From: Terriglobia bacterium
Lineage (GTDB): Bacteria > Acidobacteriota > Terriglobia > 20CM-2-55-15
Direction: 5' to 3'
DNA length: 64,000 nt
NCBI GenBank assembly: GCA_965218585.1
Contig: CBDCLE010000002.1
Coordinates: forward strand, 32,001 to 96,000
The translations under genes were made by a program, and so were the position numbers. Below the pieces are notes generated by a model. That model was not told the DNA's origin. It searched no databases and was given only the letters and a program-made list of their open reading frames with translations. This document shows, in pieces, positions 26,382 through 49,321 of the stretch; the stretch's first letter is position 1; each line of letters begins with the position of its first letter.

Positions 26382-27623
26382 TGCCGGCTCAACCGGTCGA
26401 TGCAACACATGCATTAAATGTTTCTGCCGGAGTTGCGAACTCCAGCGTCTTGCGGGGCCGCTCGTTGAGCTGCCGAGCAACCGCGTCCAAATGTTCCTGT
26501 GAGTGTACCGACAGATTCGTCCTTTTGGGAAAGTAGTATCGAAGCAGACCATTGGTGTTCTCATTCGATCCGCGCTGCCATGGACTCCGTGGGTCGCAGA
26601 AATAGACGGCAATGTTTGTCGCCAGGGTAAACCGCTTGTGATCCGCCATTTCCAGACCGCGATCCCAGGTCAGTGATTTGTAGAGTTCCGTCGGTAGTGG
26701 ATGCGCCTGTTCGATGAGCGCGTTGACAACAGTTTCGGTCTTCTTGTTGGGAACCTTCGCCAGCATCACATAACGCGAGTGACGTTCGACCAGAGTGGCG
26801 ATGTAGGTGTTCCTCGATCCGGCGATCCGATCCCCTTCCCAGTGACCGGGGACCGCACGATATTCGACTGAAGCCGGGCGCTCACGGATCGAGATCATGT
26901 CTTCGATCTGTCCCTTTCCATGGCCTTTCCGGCTCGCTTTTCCAGATCGGCGAATCGTGCGTCTTGTCCGCAGATACTGAGTCAGTTCTTTCTTCAAAAC
27001 CCCGCGGGCCTGGACAAAAAGGCTGCGATAGATCGTCTCGTGGAACACGTGAAGCGACTCGTCTTCCGGATATGAGTGTTTCAGCCAACCGGCGATTTGC
27101 TCGGGCGACCAGACCTTCTGCAGCTTCTCTTCAACAAGCTGCCGTAAGCGGGGACTGCGGGCTAACCGGCACGACTTCGGACGGCGCGCCCGCTCCCAGG
27201 TCCGCTCATCGGCTTCCGATGCCCGATAGCTATCAGAGCCCCCGTTTCGGCTGACCTCCCGGCTCACCGTCGATGGCGACCGACCCAGTCGCACGGCAAT
27301 CGAACGGAGCGATTCTTTGGCCGCAATACCTCTAGAGATCTCTTCACGTTCGACCAGAGTCAGTGCCCGCGCTGACCGGCAACGGGACTGCGGACGGATG
27401 CCCCCGTACACGGCCAGTTGACGATGAATCGCCGATCCCCCTCTGTCCAGCACGCGTCCGATCGATTGGGACGACTCCCCCCGCTGCCAGCGATCCCACA
27501 CCTCGACCCGCTCGATCGCTGTGAACCATCGCCGCTTCCTCATCCGCTTGTTCTTTCGTTTCTTGGCCATACACTTCACCTCTCTTCTTATGTGAAGTGT
27601 TGCATCGACCCCTTGAAATCACC
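26382..27623 (-). mobile_element. IS30-family insertion sequence
   Basis: Imperfect 26-bp IRs sharing TCAA..GGTCGATGCAACA; 2-bp TSD CC. Confidence 0.9.
26389..27579 (-). CDS. IS30 transposase
   Basis: WSPEQIAG, GHWEGD, LTWDRGLEM, PWQRGSNENTNGLLR, LNERPRK. Confidence 0.95.
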   Translation of the reverse strand: MKCMAKKRKNKRMRKRRWFTAIERVEVWDRWQRGESSQSIGRVLDRGGSAIHRQLAVYGGIRPQSRCRSARALTLVEREEISRGIAAKESLRSIAVRLGRSPSTVSREVSRNGGSDSYRASEADERTWERARRPKSCRLARSPRLRQLVEEKLQKVWSPEQIAGWLKHSYPEDESLHVFHETIYRSLFVQARGVLKKELTQYLRTRRTIRRSGKASRKGHGKGQIEDMISIRERPASVEYRAVPGHWEGDRIAGSRNTYIATLVERHSRYVMLAKVPNKKTETVVNALIEQAHPLPTELYKSLTWDRGLEMADHKRFTLATNIAVYFCDPRSPWQRGSNENTNGLLRYYFPKRTNLSVHSQEHLDAVARQLNERPRKTLEFATPAETFNACVASTG

Positions 27624-30994: not shown

Positions 30995-31149
30995 GGTAGT
31001 GTCTCAGTTTGAAATTGCCTTCTTGTAAGTTGAAGGGCGATTGGGCTTCTGCTGACGCCCGTCGATAAGGCCGATGATCCAGTCAATGTCGTGCAGCTTG
31101 TCGCTCACGCCAGCCGCCATAGCTGGGGATACTAAACTGAGACACTACC
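30995..31149 (-). mobile_element. 155-bp mini-IS1 (internal deletion derivative/MITE)
   Basis: IRs GGTAGTGTCTCAGTTT / AAACTGAGACACTACC; 8-bp TSD GAGAATTC. The interior encodes a transposase C-terminus, SPAMAAGVSDKLHDIDWII..ISN*. Confidence 0.88.
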
Positions 31150-31244: not shown

Positions 31245-31526
31245 GTGATTCGGAGCTTTGCGGATAAAGAGACCGAAAGACTGTTTGTCCGTGAGCGCAA
31301 TAAAGCACTTCCCAAGAAACTTCACCGAATCGCATTAAGGAAACTGCTTCAGATCGACGCTGCCGAGTCTTTAGGTGACTTACACACACCGCCAGGGAAT
31401 CACCTGGAGCGGCTTCGCGGAAAACGAAAAGGACAACACAGCATCAGAATCAACGATCAGTGGCGCATCTGTTTCATTTGGAGAGGCCCTGACGCTGAAG
31501 CGGTCGAAATCGTCGACTATCACTGA
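31245..31526 (+). CDS. higB: HigB (RelE-like) toxin
   Basis: MIRSFADKETE, PPGNHLERL, HSIRINDQWRICF, VEIVDYH. Confidence 0.95.
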   Translation: MIRSFADKETERLFVRERNKALPKKLHRIALRKLLQIDAAESLGDLHTPPGNHLERLRGKRKGQHSIRINDQWRICFIWRGPDAEAVEIVDYH

Positions 31527-31528
31527 GG

Positions 31529-31840
31529 ATGAACATGGGTAAGAAAGTCTTAGAACCGATTCACCCTGGGGAAATCCTTCTTGAGGATTTTCTGCGACCA
31601 CTCGGACTGAGTCAGTATCGGGTAGCAAAAGGTATTAGCGTACCTCCCCGCCGTATCAATGAGATCGTGCATGGAAAGCGTTCGATCAGTGCCGACACCG
31701 CACTTCGATTGAGTCGTTTCTTCGGAACATCGGAACGGTTCTGGCTGAACCTCCAGACTCGATATGACCTGGAAGCTGAAAAGGACCGACTCGGTGAAAC
31801 CTTGGAACAGGAAGTTGAGGTTCTTTCGAACGCAGGTTGA
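31529..31840 (+). CDS. higA: HigA antitoxin (Xre HTH)
   Basis: HPGEILLEDFL, RINEIVHGKRSISADTALRL, FWLNLQ. Confidence 0.95.
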   Translation: MNMGKKVLEPIHPGEILLEDFLRPLGLSQYRVAKGISVPPRRINEIVHGKRSISADTALRLSRFFGTSERFWLNLQTRYDLEAEKDRLGETLEQEVEVLSNAG

Positions 31841-40984: not shown

Positions 40985-41075
40985 TGGAACATGCCGTCGG
41001 GATGCAGAAATTCGGTACTGGTCTAGTTTGAATTTCACTGGAGGGACTGCCGCCAAGTCGTGAGACAATGGCTGC

Positions 41076-41330
41076 ATGCCAGAACCGCGCAAGAATAAGC
41101 GGCCCCGCGACATGAACCAGCTTGCCTACCAGATCGTCCAGGAAGCGACGGGGCAAGCCCCACCAGAACAACCGGATACCCGCAACCCTGCTGCTGTCGC
41201 GCTTGCAAAGCTGGGAGCTTCAAAGGGAGGGAAGGCTAGAGCTGAGAAACTCAGCCCGCTGAAACGGAAGCAGATCGCGAAGAAAGCGGCTCAAGCTCGC
41301 TGGGGACAGCAACAAAATGATACGGATTAG
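41076..41330 (+). CDS. Small basic protein of the IS1 element (GGKARA..LS..KAAxARW motif)
   Basis: KRPRDMNQLAYQIV..NPAAVALAKLGASKGGKARAEKLSPLKRKQIAKKAAQARW. Confidence 0.85.
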   Translation: MPEPRKNKRPRDMNQLAYQIVQEATGQAPPEQPDTRNPAAVALAKLGASKGGKARAEKLSPLKRKQIAKKAAQARWGQQQNDTD

Positions 41331-41848
41331 CGTTGCTTACGCGGTGCCGATACGCCAGCCCGCATCCTAGGGGTTGCTACTCCAGCGACACTCGCTATCA
41401 GATCACTTCGGAACAGTTTTTTCAATTGTCCAGTTTTACTGATCCTGACAACGAACGGTCGCGCCTGACTATTCGCTAAATTTAGAAGTCGTTCTTGGTT
41501 CACAGTCAGCATCGAGGCCCAGTGTCTTGGCCCAAGACTGTTGTCATTCAGGACGACAAAGAACGCCTTTGAACGAACTATCGTATCTCTATAAAGGCGT
41601 TCTGCCGCTCGGTCTGCACTGATTATCAGCCAGCCACGGCTTGCCACGTCAGCGATCCACACGTCATCATCTTCGTCGTGCTCAAAGTGATCGTAGTGCG
41701 GTTCGATCTTAAAGCCAACACCAGTGAGATGCTCGACCAATTCACTGCCAGTGATGTTGCGGTCCGTGAAGAATACGGTGTCTCGTTTCAGGTCTTCAAG
41801 AAGCGATAGACGCGAACCGGATCGCTGTTTCGATGTCATTCGACCCAA
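41327..41848 (-). CDS. VapC45-like PIN-domain toxin (true start probably near 41800)
   Basis: FFTDRN..DDVWIADVASRGWLIISAD; overlaps the antitoxin stop. Confidence 0.78.
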   Translation of the reverse strand: MGRMTSKQRSGSRLSLLEDLKRDTVFFTDRNITGSELVEHLTGVGFKIEPHYDHFEHDEDDDVWIADVASRGWLIISADRAAERLYRDTIVRSKAFFVVLNDNSLGPRHWASMLTVNQERLLNLANSQARPFVVRISKTGQLKKLFRSDLIASVAGVATPRMRAGVSAPRKQR

Positions 41849-42494
41849 TATGGTAGTCCTGAGCTAGCTTTCCGACTGATTCGCCCAGCCGATGCCGGTC
41901 TGCGATAACGGACACGAGCACACCGCTCTGTTTAACGCTTGGGCGACCCGATGAAACATTCGGATTCATTACGACGACGGTTTCTTCAATCAGCGGAGGA
42001 TAGAACCTCGACGGTATATTCGATGGGTCGAGGTCAATCCTCTGAAGATACTTCTGAAACATCGGAAGAAGTCTTTGACCCTGATTCTTGACGCTTGCAC
42101 TCACGTACTCTCCGTGCACGTCATCCGCGATTGCTTGGACATAGACTCTGCCACTGCCCAAATAGAATCTTCGATCTATCAGAGGGCGAGAACTTCCAAG
42201 TTGCTCGCTCACGTAATCAATGACGGAGCGCATGTGCTGGATCGATACATTGCCCTTTGCTCGTGCGAAATCTAGTACGTAGAGTTCGACCAAATTGAAA
42301 AAAGACAAAAAATGGGAGTTGTCCACCTGGATGAGCGGGCCGTATTGGTCACCTCGACCGAAGGCCCAGTAACGAACCGTGGATACAGGAATTCCAAGGT
42401 ACCGGGAGGCCTCTTGTGCCGTGTATGTGGGCGTATTTCTTCGATCTATCGTTCTCATCACCAGAGAATGTACAACTGAAAGTTGCATGGACAC
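41796..42494 (-). CDS. HTH + DUF433 antitoxin (VapB45/Rv2018-like)
   Basis: YTAQEASRYLGIPVSTVRYW, LSFFNLVE, NPNVSSGRP..GESVGKLAQDY..IETAIRF. Confidence 0.85.
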   Translation of the reverse strand: MSMQLSVVHSLVMRTIDRRNTPTYTAQEASRYLGIPVSTVRYWAFGRGDQYGPLIQVDNSHFLSFFNLVELYVLDFARAKGNVSIQHMRSVIDYVSEQLGSSRPLIDRRFYLGSGRVYVQAIADDVHGEYVSASVKNQGQRLLPMFQKYLQRIDLDPSNIPSRFYPPLIEETVVVMNPNVSSGRPSVKQSGVLVSVIADRHRLGESVGKLAQDYHIGSNDIETAIRFASIAS

Positions 42495-42676
42495 ACCTCT
42501 CTGCTATACTCAGGAAATAGCAGAGAGGATGCACCGCCATGCACCTCGGAGTTGCCCTCAGTTCCTAATCTACAGACAAGTTCAATACACCACGGAACCT
42601 GAACAGAACGGGTCCGCGCCTGCAATCTACAGGAGAAATAATATTCCGAAAAGAAAATAAGCCATCCACGAAATCG

Positions 42677-42705
42677 TTGACTATTCTTACACGTGTAAGT
42701 ATAAT
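42677..42705 (+). promoter_or_regulatory. Transposase promoter with a palindromic operator
   Basis: TTGACT -17 bp- TATAAT; the spacer contains the perfect palindrome CTTACACGTGTAAG (42686-42699). Confidence 0.8.
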
Positions 42706-42712
42706 GGCTAAT

Positions 42713-43540
42713 ATGAATCGGCTGAGTAAGGATCGCCAAAGACAGGTTGTCGCTGCCCTGGTTGAAGGGAACGGCCTTCGAGCGACTGCACGGATGACGG
42801 GCGTGGCACGAATGACCGTCGAAAAGCTCTTGAAGGATTTAGGTGCTGCGTGTACCAATCTCCAAGACGAATCCTTTCGCAACCTCGCCTGCAAACGCAT
42901 CCAAGTTGATGAAATCTGGGCGTTCTGCTACGCAAAGGAAAAGAACGTTCCATCCGACAGGAAAGGACAGTTCGGGTACGGGGATGTTTGGACGTGGGTC
43001 GCGATTGACGCCGACACCAAGTTAATTCCTTCCTGGTTGATCGGGCGGCGGGACGCGATCTGCGCCAGTGAGTTCCTGGCTGATCTGGCTGGGCGGCTGG
43101 CCAACCGCGTCCAATTGACCTCTGACGGTCACAAGGCCTACCTAGTGGGCGTAGAGGCTGCGTTTGGCGGCGAAGTCGATTACAGCCAGCTTGTGAAGCT
43201 CTACGGCAAGCCTTACGATGAACACCGCTACAGCCCACCGCAGTGCGTCGGTATCGCGATGAATCCGGTCGTTGGCGATCCAGATCCGGGACACGTTTCG
43301 ACCAGCTATGTTGAACGTCAGAATCTCACGATGCGGATGCACATGCGCCGGTTCACTAGGCTGACCAATGGACACTCGAAGAAAATCGAGAATCACGCAC
43401 TCGCTGTTGCGCTCCACTTCGCCTACTACAATTTTGTGAAGATTCATCAAAGCTTGAAGGTTACTCCAGCGATGGCCGCAGGCGTCACGGATCGACTGTG
43501 GGAGATCGAAGACCTGCTAAGGCTGATTGATTCAAACTAG
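42713..43540 (+). CDS. IS1-family DDE transposase
   Basis: N-terminal HTH (LVEGNGLRATARMTGV), QVDEIW, LTSDG, TSYVERQNLTMR, RRFTRLTN, TPAMAAG. The stop lies inside the right IR. Confidence 0.92.
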   Translation: MNRLSKDRQRQVVAALVEGNGLRATARMTGVARMTVEKLLKDLGAACTNLQDESFRNLACKRIQVDEIWAFCYAKEKNVPSDRKGQFGYGDVWTWVAIDADTKLIPSWLIGRRDAICASEFLADLAGRLANRVQLTSDGHKAYLVGVEAAFGGEVDYSQLVKLYGKPYDEHRYSPPQCVGIAMNPVVGDPDPGHVSTSYVERQNLTMRMHMRRFTRLTNGHSKKIENHALAVALHFAYYNFVKIHQSLKVTPAMAAGVTDRLWEIEDLLRLIDSN

Positions 43541-43661
43541 ACCAGTACCAGAAATTCTATCACGCTGCCGAGAACAGCTTCTGGCGTTATAATCGGGACA
43601 ACAAAGCGACTACTACAGGATCTAGCCGTCTGAAGAAGTATAGAACCGGGAGGTAGAGTCC

Positions 43662-44342
43662 ATGAAACGTACAGCCATCTTTGTTGCAGCACTGGTCCTG
43701 CTAGCAGCCTTACCTGCCGGCCTCGACGCACAGCAGGCCGGGTTCAGGGTCGGCATCGGCACCCGAATCGGAGTGGCACAGGCACCTTACGGAATAGGCG
43801 GGCCTATCTTCGTTGGACCGAATATGGTGGGCCGCACTCTGCCCGGAATCGGCGGATCTGTCGTGGTCGGAAACAGAGGCCGTTTCGCTCAACCACCCGC
43901 TTATGGCTTGCAGCGCGGTCGAGGGATTCGTCCAAGGCCTGGGATTAATCGACGAGGGTCGTTTGTTTTCGTGGGACCGCCTGCCGTCAAGATCGGGCCC
44001 GGTCACCAGCCTTTCACACCTACTCATCCGGTGGCGACCCCCGGAGTCACCGTCATCACACCGGGAGGAAATATCGTCTCAACGGGCACGCGCCCGAGAG
44101 GTGGGGTTAACCTAAGGCCTGGAACCCGGATCGTCCAGCAAGGAATCGGGCCCGCTATCGCAGTCAGAACCAATGACCCTTATTCCGGCATCCGGAACGT
44201 CGGCCGGGGGACACCGCGCCACGAAGTCATCACCCGTTTCGGCAGACCGAAAGTACAGATCCTGAACCGGGATTCGGAAACACTGATCTTCGGTGGGACC
44301 ACGGTTATCATTCAGAATGGCGTCGTGGCCCTCGTTCGCTGA
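43662..44342 (+). CDS. Secreted Gly/Pro-rich hypothetical protein
   Basis: RBS GGAGG, signal peptide, low complexity, C-terminal GTPRHEVITRFGRP (SmpA-like). Confidence 0.7.
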   Translation: MKRTAIFVAALVLLAALPAGLDAQQAGFRVGIGTRIGVAQAPYGIGGPIFVGPNMVGRTLPGIGGSVVVGNRGRFAQPPAYGLQRGRGIRPRPGINRRGSFVFVGPPAVKIGPGHQPFTPTHPVATPGVTVITPGGNIVSTGTRPRGGVNLRPGTRIVQQGIGPAIAVRTNDPYSGIRNVGRGTPRHEVITRFGRPKVQILNRDSETLIFGGTTVIIQNGVVALVR

Positions 44343-45197: not shown

Positions 45198-45989
45198 TCA
45201 CGCGGAACCTTGGGCGGACCGGGGTTTCTTCTTCCGTTTGCCCGCGGCACCGAGACTCTCGGTGAAGCGGATACTTTCCCAATCGAACTGATGAATCGCG
45301 CAGTGATGGGTCAATCGGTCCAACAGGGCCGCGGTCAGGGCGGCATCGCCGAACACGCTGGTCCACTGCGCAAACGGCAGGTTCGACGTCACGATGAGGG
45401 AACCCTTTTCGTACCGGTCCGAGAAGACCTGAAACAGCAACTGGGCACCCTCGGCCGAGAACGGGATATAGCCGACCTCGTCGACGATGAGCAGCTCGAA
45501 GCGGGACAACTTCGCCAGTTGCCGCTTCAACTGTCGCTCCTCACGGGACTCGATCAGCGTATTGACCCGCCCCGCGGCCGTGGTGAACCCGACGCGGTAG
45601 CCCCTCCGGCAGGCTTCCACACCCCACACCGTCGCGGCGTGAGTCTTGCCGGTGCCGTGTTTGCCCAACAGCACGACGTTCTCGCACCGGGTGATGGTGT
45701 CGCACTCGGCATAGTCGCGCACCTGGACCGCATCCAGTGCCGGCCACTTGTTCAGGTCGGTCGTTTCCAGGGTTTTCAACCGTGGGAACCGGGCCGCGCG
45801 CAACCGGCGCTGGATCTGATTGGCTTGCCGCTGTTCCAACTCACGACTGGCCAGAGCCAGCAGAAAGCCGGGGTACCCCTCGCCGGCTTCCTTGGCCTGG
45901 CGGCCGTATTCCCGCCATTCCCGGACCATGGCCGGCAACCGGAGCTGCCGCAATGCGTCGTCCAGGACCACCTCCTGTCCCGGAGTCAT
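45198..45989 (-). CDS. istB: IS21 helper ATPase
   Basis: GKHGTGKTH, IVDEVGY, TSNLPF, ALLDRLTHH. Confidence 0.95.
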   Translation of the reverse strand: MTPGQEVVLDDALRQLRLPAMVREWREYGRQAKEAGEGYPGFLLALASRELEQRQANQIQRRLRAARFPRLKTLETTDLNKWPALDAVQVRDYAECDTITRCENVVLLGKHGTGKTHAATVWGVEACRRGYRVGFTTAAGRVNTLIESREERQLKRQLAKLSRFELLIVDEVGYIPFSAEGAQLLFQVFSDRYEKGSLIVTSNLPFAQWTSVFGDAALTAALLDRLTHHCAIHQFDWESIRFTESLGAAGKRKKKPRSAQGSA

Positions 45990-47515
45990 CGCACACCTCC
46001 AGCCAACAGGTCGTATCGATTCAGATCGGTTCCGGCAATCGCCCGGTCCGTGATCCCGGGCATCAGTCCGGACTCAAGCGGGGCATGGGATCGGGCGGGT
46101 GCGTCCTCCCGCATCAGAATGTGCCGCACCGCTTCCAGTTCGGCGCAGTGGGCATCGAGCGCATCCTGGACGGCGGCCGACACCCGGCCCAGATCCCAGT
46201 TCTGGTGGAGTTGCAGGATGCTGATGAACTCCCGGGTGCCCCGGCTGTACCCATGCCGGTCCCGCAACCGCTCCAGCACCGTCTCGTAATGGGCCGGCCA
46301 CTGGGGCCGCCACTGCCGGATCGGGCGGGCACTCTCAAACGAGGCCACCTTCCGCCGGATCAACTCCAGGTAGTGCAACGGATCGGTCCGCCAGTCGCTA
46401 TGACCGAAGGCGCGGGCATGTTCGGCCACCTTCTTCTGGTCCGCGTAAAAGCTCACCCGGTCACAGCCGATATGGGCCCAGAGCCGGCGTCCCACATACG
46501 CGGTCGGCACCGAGTAGCGGTTCGAATCCACCTGGGCGGTCTGGTACCGGCTGATCCGCACGCCCACCACCTTCGTGTTTTCGAATGGCGTCTCGGGCAG
46601 CGCCAACAGGCGCTCTTTCTCGACCGCGTGCCGTTCCCCGATCGTGCGGGTGTCGGACCGGCCGCCGATCCGGCGCTGCTCGTCGGTCGCGCAGCGTTCC
46701 AGCAGCTGCGCGTTCAGTTCCTCGAAGTCGGCCACCTCGGGAATCGGCACCAGGAAATTCCGGCGTGCGAAACCGACCAGGCCCTCGACACCACCTTTCT
46801 CCTGGCCCCGGGCCGGATTACAGAACCGCGCTTCAAAGGTGTAGTGGGCTCGTAACGCCGTGAACCGGTCCTGCTCGATCCGGGCCTTCCCCCTCAGAAT
46901 CCGCCTCACAGCTGTCTTCAGGTTATCGAAGACCACGGCCGGGAATACGCCGCCGTACCAGCCGAACGCCCGGATGTGACCGTCCAGGAACATCGCCTTC
47001 CGTTCCCGCGGATACGCCCGCACGAACGACTTGCCCGAGTACCGGCTCCGCATGCAGAACAGTTTGACCTGAACGTCTTCACCCTTCATCCGGACCCAGC
47101 CCGTCCCCCAGTCCACTTCCGCTTCCCGCGCCTGTTCCGGATCCAGCGGCACCACCGCCCCCGGCCGGTGCCAGCCCAAACGCATCTTCCGCTCCCGGAC
47201 CCATCGCCGCACCGTCGGCTCGGCTCCGGTGAACCCATGCTCATCGACCAGGCGCCGCCATACCCGGTGCGCCGTGTGCCGCTGCTTGACCGGCTGCTCC
47301 CGATCGGCCCGCAGCCAGCCCTCCACGATCCCGGCCACCGGGTCCATCACCGGACAGGCCGGCTCCTTCTCCCGCCGATACTTCGGCTCCTGGCCGGCCA
47401 ATACTTTCCGGACCGTCCGTCTCGTGTGCCCGGTCTCCCGGGCGATCTGTCGAATGCTTTTCTTGTAAACTCGATGTGCGGTCCTGACCATCTCGTACTG
47501 ATCCATCCCTAACAA
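45986..47515 (-). CDS. istA: IS21 transposase
   Basis: EAEVDWG, FDNLKTAV, CNPARGQEKGGVE, NRYSVP. Confidence 0.95.
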   Translation of the reverse strand: MLGMDQYEMVRTAHRVYKKSIRQIARETGHTRRTVRKVLAGQEPKYRREKEPACPVMDPVAGIVEGWLRADREQPVKQRHTAHRVWRRLVDEHGFTGAEPTVRRWVRERKMRLGWHRPGAVVPLDPEQAREAEVDWGTGWVRMKGEDVQVKLFCMRSRYSGKSFVRAYPRERKAMFLDGHIRAFGWYGGVFPAVVFDNLKTAVRRILRGKARIEQDRFTALRAHYTFEARFCNPARGQEKGGVEGLVGFARRNFLVPIPEVADFEELNAQLLERCATDEQRRIGGRSDTRTIGERHAVEKERLLALPETPFENTKVVGVRISRYQTAQVDSNRYSVPTAYVGRRLWAHIGCDRVSFYADQKKVAEHARAFGHSDWRTDPLHYLELIRRKVASFESARPIRQWRPQWPAHYETVLERLRDRHGYSRGTREFISILQLHQNWDLGRVSAAVQDALDAHCAELEAVRHILMREDAPARSHAPLESGLMPGITDRAIAGTDLNRYDLLAGGVR

Positions 47516-48080: not shown

Positions 48081-48164
48081 GCCGGAGTGGCGGAATGGCA
48101 GACGCAGCAGACTCAAAATCTGCCGAGACTTAGTCTCGTGGGGGTTCAAGTCCCCCCTCCGGCA
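48081..48164 (+). tRNA. tRNA-Leu(CAA)
   Basis: Acceptor stem GCCGGAG/CTCCGGC plus A, anticodon arm GCAGA-CTCAAAA-TCTGC, long variable arm, T-loop GGTTCAAGTCC; CCA not encoded. Confidence 0.96.
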
Positions 48165-48172
48165 TATACGTT

Positions 48173-49321
48173 TCAAGCACTTGCAACCTGACCGACTTCT
48201 CGCTCCTTGCTAAATTCGGCCAACTTTGCCCGTACCGTGCCCGCACTTTGCCCGAGGTACTCGTCCACGGCGTCACCGGCGGCTCTAATATCATCCTCAT
48301 TGACGATGTTGTAACGGTCAAAAACCGACCGTGTCTTGTGACCCGAAATCGCCATCGCGACTCTCTCGGGAACACCGGCACGGACCACAGGTTGCGAACG
48401 CCACAACGCCGGAGATCGTGGAATAGAGCACCGCTGAGTCCAACCTTCTCGCAGGCCGCTTTTCCAAGCCGCACGGAAATCCCTAATCGGCCTTCCCGTG
48501 GAATGGCTGAAAAATACGTGTTTACAGAAAGGGAACGACTGATCCCGAAGCTGGCGCTGAGCTAAGAGTTCGTCGTGCAACTCCTGGCCCATCGGAACAA
48601 TTCGAGGACTGTCGTTCTTAGTTGTGTGAGGTTCGAGACGGATTACACGGGCGTTGAAGTCGACCTGGTCCCAAGTCAGACTCAAGACTTCTCCGTGACG
48701 CATGCCCGTTCGGTAGGCGAGACTGACAACCGGTTTCAGGCGGTCTGGAAGGACTTTCTGCAACCGGATGTATGTGAAGTGATCGAAGAAGCCCTTACGA
48801 ACGTTCTTCTCCGCAAGCATCGGAACGTGAGGCACAACAGTGACTTTGCCGTCCTTTTTCGCGATGTTGAACATACGCTTGAGCGCGGATAGCTCGCGAT
48901 TCAGCGTTGCGTTCGAGGGCGGCTAGTCGTGCTGAGTCTCTTCCGTTTGCCTAACTGCGACGTACTCCCGGATCCTATCGGTCGTGATCTGAACGGCCTT
49001 GAAGCCACCGAAGTGCTTCTCTAACCGCTTCACGTAGTCACGAACGTTCCGGATAGCCTTCTTCCGGTTGATCCGGTAGTCATTCAATAAACCCTCTGCC
49101 ATTTCATCGAACGTTGTTCTCTCTGGCGTCAGGTCTACGAATGTACCGCCAGCTACGGCGCCTTCCCGCTTCTTGAGTAACTCCACAGCATCGCGCTTCC
49201 TGTGCGACCCTGAGGATTCACGGTACGGCTTGCCGTTCCGGTAATACTTCACCCAGTACTTACTACTCTCTTGATAAACCCCGTCACTGTTCTTGTAGCG
49301 GGGCTTGTAGATAGAACCCAT
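48173..49321 (-). pseudogene. Tyrosine integrase, inactivated
   Basis: In-frame TAG at 48923-48925 before PSNATLNRELSAL; TGMRHGE; FHDLRR moved out of frame by compensating +1/+2 insertions; SGHKTRSVFDRY. It converges on the tRNA 3' end. Confidence 0.9.

Follow-up and report, generated by a model that had tools for sequence, protein, structure and literature searches.

The window analyzed here is a 64,000-nucleotide stretch of the genome of a Terriglobia bacterium (phylum Acidobacteriota; assembly GCA_965218585.1, contig CBDCLE010000002.1, positions 32,001 to 96,000), in which an earlier note, made from the DNA letters alone, had proposed a mobile element of the IS1 family of insertion sequences (IS) with a VapBC45-like toxin–antitoxin (TA) pair and a small basic protein. 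The element and the features around it are listed in table 1. It measures 2536 bp from one terminal inverted repeat (IR) to the other, is present in one copy in the host genome, and has a GC content of 52% compared with 57% for the genome. As the earlier note had described, the two IRs of 20 nt each are 100% complementary and the same 8-bp target-site duplication (TSD), AGAAATTC, stands at both flanks; the chance that 64 kb contain a perfect IR of 20 bp is ~2e-3 and that of the duplication 1.5e-5, giving a product of ~3e-8. All four open reading frames (ORFs) reported for the element are open, and the transposase stop (43538-43540) indeed lies within the right IR. No tRNA or Rfam match was found inside the element.

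Table 1. Features of the element and its flanks in the window (HTH, helix-turn-helix).
Feature	Position	Strand	Remarks
Left copy of the 8-bp target duplication AGAAATTC	41006..41013	.	Run X4 has it once in its empty allele
Left terminal IR	41014..41033	+	Agrees with the consensus derived from 190 family ends
Candidate -10 box for the small gene, 6 nt from the ATG (putatively leaderless)	41064..41069	+	Similar layout in relatives
84-aa basic scaffold protein of the family (labeled "histone H1" in GenBank); probably a DNA-binding repressor	41076..41330	+	
PIN_10 (Mut7-C group, VapC45-like) predicted toxin; D26, D58, D76 retained	41327..41839	-	Pfam
HTH + DUF433 predicted antitoxin (VapB45/Rv2018-like); overlaps the toxin start; alternative start 42458	41796..42488	-	Pfam
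Palindrome (12-bp arms) immediately upstream of the antitoxin; candidate operator of the TA pair	42496..42528	.	Putative role
Transposase promoter TTGACT, 17 bp, TATAAT; 14-bp spacer palindrome 42686-42699, candidate operator	42677..42705	+	
Single-ORF IS1-like DDE transposase with N-terminal HTH	42713..43540	+	Pfam DDE_Tnp_IS1; D69, D141, E204 (numbered from 42704) invariant in 65 sequences
Right terminal IR, transposase stop within	43530..43549	-	Complementary to the left IR
Right copy of the target duplication AGAAATTC	43550..43557	.	Identical to the left copy
Host promoter-like site in the family register: weak -35 (43565-43570, 3/6 matches), 17 bp, TATAAT (43588-43593)	43565..43593	+	Ahead of the gene at 43662

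The insertion is intergenic, between two divergent host genes and 21 bp before the ATG (40984) of the left one; the neighboring ORF of the earlier note enters the element by chance only. Contigs of run X1, which may be the source sample, cross both junctions without differences, so that the junctions do not stem from a mis-assembly. The congeners G001–G003 have an empty site, with both flanking genes adjacent and the element absent. Public runs, of which 4 of the 10 listed were compared, hold both alleles: one contig of run X4 skips exactly 2544 bp, the element and one duplication, another contig of the same run has the filled left junction without differences, and one contig of run X6 also shows the empty site. 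A recent insertion, as had been suspected, is indicated by the flawless IRs and duplication together with the occurrence of filled and empty alleles among near relatives, and judged by these alleles the element is a genuine, recently inserted IS. As for the copy-paste or cointegrate transposition of the IS1 family, no circle junction was seen among the joints of the four contig sets, contigs being unable to show its absence.

Both ends read GGTACTG, in agreement with the GGnnnTG ends of the IS1 family, and the 8-bp duplication agrees with the 8–9 bp of that family; such ends, the duplication, and a DDE enzyme are the traits by which the family is defined in the tabulation of PMC10425158. The conserved start of the transposase is probably 42713 (275 aa, leaderless). 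The protein matches Pfam PF03400 (DDE_Tnp_IS1) with 24.7 bits (cut-off 24.1), and its best NCBIfam match is NF033558 (IS1), below the cut-off (61.7 vs. 100). With the Pfam match, the invariant D69/D141/E204, and an RNase H-type fold in the structural model, it is a DDE transposase of the IS1 type; the best fold match of the model is the IS256-family ISCth4 enzyme (TM 0.43), and homologues at 53–60% identity are annotated as IS1 family in GenBank/RefSeq. Classical IS1 measures 740–1180 bp and encodes its transposase in two ORFs (InsA/InsB), whereas the element has a single transposase ORF and carries passengers, an extra small gene, and a fixed promoter register in addition. The family name given in the earlier note can therefore be kept for the element as an IS1-family transporter IS (tIS), not as a classical IS1. 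A tIS is defined as an IS with passenger genes within its IRs (definitions in PMC9330008 and PMC7986276), the arrangement also found here.

The family was surveyed in the best 80 of at least 554 confirmed transposase loci, which come from many phyla and have 58–68% identity. Paired IRs and a duplication surround 61 of the 80 (57 at first, four added by further inspection); among the 57, four duplications have one mismatch and two are of 9 bp, and of the remaining 19 loci, many run off a contig or show paired IRs that lack a duplication. The reading that half of the homologues lack IRs was rejected, as the right IR lay further out, beyond downstream cargo. Element sizes range from 1336 to 5383 bp, with a median of 3.1 kb. 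Among the 69 elements that show either a duplication or an IR match of 17/18, the small basic gene is full-length in 63, has a short form on the other strand in five, and is missing in one, bearing out the fixed scaffold of basic protein and transposase that the earlier note had postulated. The single variable cargo slot of that note stood only in part: cargo varies widely, with 153 ORFs of at least 100 aa falling into 123 clusters, and there is more than one slot, because in 35 of the 57 TSD-bearing elements the stretch behind the transposase also exceeds 250 bp. It should be noted that the cargo ORFs were chosen by a length heuristic and include spurious ones or ones from nested IS, and that Pfam covered 168 and PADLOC 106 of the 191 picked cargo ORFs. 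TA families (SocA/Panacea, Gp49, PIN, PIN_3, PemK, MqsA, Fic, ParE, HigB) are found in 11 elements, PADLOC matches below 1e-20 also in 11 (BstA, two RmrA-like proteins, three methylases, PDC-M19, SoFic, three PD-Lambda-2B), and the union of TA and defense matches comprises 19 of the 69. P63C proteins occur in seven elements and an SDH-type protease in five; many elements are without named cargo.

Sister elements in supported clades of the transposase tree carry different cargo, in a tree calculated by a quick method from 65 rows with 27 of 62 inner branches open. Genome G003 holds two copies that are 100% identical where alignable and have the same cargo and different TSDs, one of them interrupted by another insertion. 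L108 and L109, tried as one transposase with two cargos, were rejected as such, being one element of which one copy is interrupted by another insertion. A single IR pair and TSD around the cargo, the exact empty allele, and cargo-bearing copies at two sites of G003 characterize the element as a tIS. Passenger-carrying IS1/ISMhu11 and IS1595 members are reportedly among the tIS of Siguier et al. 2009; the term ISMhu11 is absent from the searchable literature. ARAGORN, run with a relaxed threshold, gave tRNA-like genes in 12 of the 69 relatives, including L003, L052, and L065, and three have a Ser(GCT) anticodon.

[quoted passage not shown]

Positions in the flanks were read outward from the element ends, a TTG-anchored hexamer being taken as -35-like. 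Such a hexamer stands at position 16 in 30 of 120 flanks; positions 15 and 17 have one flank apiece, and the background is 1.2%. In 26 of the 28 elements concerned, one side only has it. Strict -10 boxes peak at positions 39 and 40 (12 and 8 flanks), and a -10 is also present in 12 of the 90 flanks without a -35 match, versus 4.2% at other registers. Because the -35 criterion was fixed after a first look at the flanks, independent sets matter: among 13 and 21 further TSD-checked elements, three and four, respectively, have the -35 match, and the combined promoter score peaks at position 16 in five and six. On viral contigs, 31 of 304 unpaired family ends have a -35 at position 16, versus 2 of 145 classical IS1 ends (Fisher 3.6e-4). 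In six elements another IR begins right behind the duplication; the -35 at position 16 is found on the far side in every case, which is what stacking of copies at a single promoter would produce. Junctions lie within long ORFs in 12 of 57 cases, versus 163 of 228 control positions. The right flank of the window element has its best promoter score at position 16, with a weak -35 there and a TATAAT at position 39 that is kept in two of three congeners; in the host genome, three further elements described below are likewise in register: a sister element on contig C26, a mini-element of 69 bp on C19, and an IS1-like element with a zinc finger on C7. On the evidence of these flanks, the family sits at a fixed distance from sigma70-type promoters, with a single-base peak, and the duplication would cover about -50 to -43 in standard numbering. 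A second peak one helical turn nearer, at position 6, was too weak to claim. Among the promoters occupied are those of tRNA-Gly, at the right flanks of four elements (L004, L016, L041, L044), and of tRNA-Thr (L100).

The same fixed 16-bp spacing is known from TnGBS, ISLre2 (p-MULT 3), and ISKra4 (p-MULT 4), which insert upstream of sigmaA promoters with a peak at 16 bp, as stated in the sections consulted of PMC3942029 (Guerillot et al. 2014). At the family level, insertion ~16 bp upstream of a -35 corresponds to this p-MULT 3/4 type, and the window copy conforms to it by its -10 and weak -35. The transposases of that group are Mutator-like, however, and their second Asp is followed by a long alpha-helical insert and a C/D(2)H signature, whereas in the window transposase D141 and E204 are 63 residues apart and the model has one short helix and two strands between them. 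In view of the missing Mutator hallmarks, the element acts like the TnGBS/ISKra4 group without being a member. For the Mutator-like elements, the same sections describe insertion in both orientations when the IRs are near-perfect, and propose a contact with the polymerase (PMC3942029). No paper on promoter-registered or defense-carrying IS1-like elements, or on the small gene, was found in the open literature, with subscription papers, ISfinder, TnPedia, and supplements lying outside this search.

The Small Basic Protein and the Toxin–Antitoxin Passenger

The 84-aa protein has a pI of 10.4 and belongs to no Pfam or NCBIfam family. The "histone H1" label stems from automatic names; histone H1 or KGG-repeat Pfam models gave no match at E 0.1, or at E 0.01 for three relatives. 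Its structural model has four helices (pTM 0.40; best structural match Z 4.2). No match to it was found in GenBank phages, and at E 0.001 there are 14,518 small-protein clusters, fusions included. The gene adjoins the left IR in most elements, with a median of 66 bp to the first start codon. Eight elements have cargo proteins (P63C, BstA, RhuM) whose N-termini carry the C-terminal module of the small protein as a fusion. A full-length BstA homologue (E 2.8e-118) whose N-terminus is this module is encoded at L014:307-1452.

The transposase promoter is near-consensus, and in 37 of 62 cases 6-7 nt separate its -10 from the ATG, suggesting leaderless messages. A candidate operator in the promoter spacer is palindromic in 25 of 56 elements (shuffled 4%), and in 23 of 56 a copy matching it at 12/16 or better lies close to the small gene (shuffled 0.7%). 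Operator pairs from one and the same element match better than cross pairs, with 0 of 5000 permutations as high. The promoter palindrome of the window copy is strong (14/16). A palindrome at the transposase promoter that often recurs at the small gene suggests that the product of the small gene is probably a repressor, and a self-encoded repressor is the simplest reading of the sequences, with the basic, helical 84-aa protein as the candidate, although the transposase itself could be the palindrome binder. A GAAC-N7-GAAC string at 42595, tried as a LexA box, was dropped, as none stands before recA, lexA, or uvrA of the genome.

For the passenger genes, the PIN plus HTH/DUF433 pair named in the earlier note was recovered by profile searches: the toxin matches PIN_10 with 40.7 bits (cut-off 26.2), the antitoxin matches DUF433 with 37.6 bits (cut-off 23.6) in addition to a sub-threshold HTH_66, and antitoxin residues 16-223 align with PDB 5af3 (Rv2018; deposited as VAPBC49; E 1.3e-10). 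The layout is VapBC45-like, the HTH and DUF433 gene lying directly upstream of the PIN_10 gene and overlapping it, and of the 3-4 acidic active-site residues of such toxins D26, D58, and D76 are present at conserved positions. For the antitoxin, 42458 is a possible start in place of 42488. The pair thus resembles VapBC45 (Rv2018/Rv2019) in the antitoxin alignment and the downstream PIN_10 partner, but it sits inside an IS, and its toxin carries a C-terminal tail of ~25 aa and is diverged after D76. DUF433/PIN_10 pairs are termed potential or predicted TA systems in passages of PMC5499597 and PMC2701414. TA biology would suggest a role in addiction or defense.

A PIN partner adjoins 68 of 80 metagenome and 19 of 29 genome homologues of the antitoxin. 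Inside an element of the present kind, a DUF433/PIN pair was found at none of the 29 genome loci (1.5-kb flanks; L271 is from the unpublished genome G095) and at one of the 80 metagenome loci, 22 of which have 1.2 kb on both sides. That one locus (L330) has the order seen here, with IR, small gene, convergent PIN and antitoxin genes, and divergent transposase, and its proteins are 35% (antitoxin), 23% (toxin), and 60% (transposase) identical to those of the window element. The VapBC45-like pair is therefore a rare passenger of the family. IR-like strings beside DUF433/PIN pairs at L299, L309, and L254 were not counted, being without transposase or small gene. A single-sequence scan of metagenomes with the antitoxin gave no match, and no homologue of the TA pair was found in 309 viral loci with family IRs. 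TA passengers next to a transposition module are also found in Tn3-family transposons, where they are proposed to aid stable invasion, according to the parts consulted of PMC7157771 (Lima-Mendez et al. 2020); DUF433 does not occur in the main text of that article. Unlike these carriers, the element has another transposase and is without a res site or resolvase.

Proposed Mechanism and Rival Explanations

The ends, the duplication, the empty alleles, the family scaffold, the cargo moving with the ends, and the single-base promoter peak are all established by comparison of sequences. Taken as a whole, they are likely to be explained by an autonomous, single-ORF IS1-like tIS that docks on promoters and carries a repressor and a TA passenger. 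The transposase would bind the two IRs, cut, and join the ends to the target with an 8-bp stagger. Its complex would dock on a sigma70 promoter, probably via promoter-bound RNA polymerase; a contact with the polymerase during target choice is, on balance, slightly favored. The core promoter would survive a docking insertion, and later elements could stack at the same site. The small basic protein would repress the transposase promoter and its own through the 16-bp palindrome, which we regard as moderately probable. The DUF433/PIN_10 genes would form a self-regulating type II TA passenger that penalizes loss of the element or acts in phage defense, and there is a good probability that the predicted pair is functional.

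Several observations weigh against this explanation. Visible register is limited to about half of the elements in the first set and to between a quarter and 40% in the validation sets, and both complete plasmid elements and a 155-bp MITE in the window (see below) are out of register. The -35 of the window copy is weak, its operator match near the small gene is 9/16 and no better than shuffled, and its insertion probably separates the left gene from its promoter, so that it is not clearly harmless. The p-values overstate the case, because the elements are related and four stand at tRNA-Gly promoters. As to the passenger, the toxin is without the IRY-type motif found after the third aspartate (D76) in most homologues, direct searches for a close toxin relative returned the toxin itself only, and PADLOC (2023 library, E 1e-6) gave no match for the three passenger and scaffold proteins of the element.

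The choice of target could also be explained by direct read-out, in which the transposase would read the target TTGAC with the HTH that binds TTTGA in its IRs, RNA polymerase playing no role. In the IRs, positions 15-18 do read TTGA almost without exception, which is an offset of one base from the target register. However, among the 47 flanks with TTG at position 16 the preceding base is T in seven, whereas all of the 190 IR ends have T there, and C occupies position 20 in 30 of the 47, whereas its IR equivalent is A in 134 of 190; the target is thus promoter-like, not IR-like. That no more than 9 of the 30 flanks with a -35 match have a strict -10 can be cited in favor of direct read-out, but in the background a -10 follows 314 of 12,577 hexamers, and enrichment of -10 boxes is seen even where a -35 match is missing, as in the window. 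We consider direct read-out rather unlikely. Near-random insertion, after which only copies upstream of promoters survive selection, would agree with the mostly intergenic position of surviving insertions and with the many copies out of register; it would, however, be expected to leave a broad hump, versus the 30 counts at one base with one on each side, the ends of classical IS1 are without a peak, and the in-register label is spread over the transposase tree, neither clustered nor confined to near-copies. This makes selection alone very improbable.

For the small basic protein, a role as a transposition cofactor or promoter-targeting adaptor in place of a repressor is suggested by its constant place beside the left IR, whatever the cargo, and by the poor operator match at the small gene of the window copy. 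Yet L033, without a detectable module, and L008 and L023, with the short form only, all have a -35 at position 16, the zinc-finger IS1-like element on C7 is in register with no small-gene match, and the presence of the C-terminal module on cargo N-termini is more like that of a portable DNA-binding unit; a cofactor appears to us an improbable substitute for the repressor. The TA pair, in turn, might be an inert or decaying hitch-hiker from a chromosome that is of no benefit to the element. That such pairs are nearly always found outside the element (all 29 genome loci, all but one of the 80 metagenome loci) and that the toxin has diverged would fit this; against it, both ORFs are intact and overlapping, with the three acidic residues retained and an operator-like palindrome ahead, and the pair recurs in the distant L330, with slot and orientation unchanged. 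The hitch-hiker is unlikely, if a serious contender to a functional passenger.

Passenger-carrying IS elements and TA-carrying transposons are already known, which makes the single copy modest and the family the point. The family is widespread and its defense cargo diverse, so that IR-to-IR content offers a ready source of new defense genes. How a transposase finds promoters is, in the portions consulted of the 2014 Mutator-like study, a proposed mechanism only (PMC3942029); a small IS1-like system makes this tractable to test and is possibly a tool for gene-sparing integration. Tentatively, and with more doubt than confidence, we suggest that a large and hardly described IS1-like family became tethered by its transposase to sigma70 RNA polymerase independently of TnGBS/ISKra4, that promoters serve it as re-usable pads on which TA and anti-phage cassettes (BstA, PD-Lambda-2, PDC-M19, SoFic, methylases) are stacked, and that a new family of small DNA-binding repressors controls it, the C-terminal module of which was grafted onto cargo proteins. 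If true, the long-proposed contact between transposase and polymerase would become directly testable with an enzyme of 275 aa and ends of 20 bp.

Related and Neighboring Elements

Complete plasmid-borne elements of the family were found in cultured strains of Mesorhizobium loti and Hoeflea (L395, CP050295.1, 1296-4665; L398, NZ_CP011481.1, 1055-5278) and lend themselves to experiments. The host genome (G000) encodes a sister element (L359, G000:C26:233319-238744) whose transposase is 72% identical and frameshifted near its end; it carries the small gene and an SDH-type protease as cargo, the latter interrupted by two other IS. Two identical 69-bp mini-elements are present (L363, G000:C19:108686-108754, and L359, G000:C26:238753-238821), of which the C19 copy is in register and the C26 copy abuts the 5.4-kb sister element across its duplication. 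A 33-bp palindrome on C14 (L362, G000:C14:35620-35652) consists of two fused IRs nearly identical to those of the window element, with its own 8-bp duplication, and would represent a minimal mobile unit or the scar of an internal deletion. L360 (G000:C7:13885-16727), L361 (C22), and C4:105652-109826 are IS1-like elements whose IRs differ and which have a zinc finger at the N-terminus, the C7 element having a -35 at position 16 and no small-gene match.

Within the window, a 155-bp non-autonomous derivative of the family (30995-31149; IRs, duplication GAGAATTC, and a remnant of the transposase 3' end) is present as a single, out-of-register copy and stands before a higBA-like pair (31245-31840). 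Other mobile genes of the window are an IS30-like transposase recognized by eye (26389-27579), an IS21-type istA/istB pair (45198-47515), and a split integrase-like gene beside a tRNA-Leu (48081-49321).

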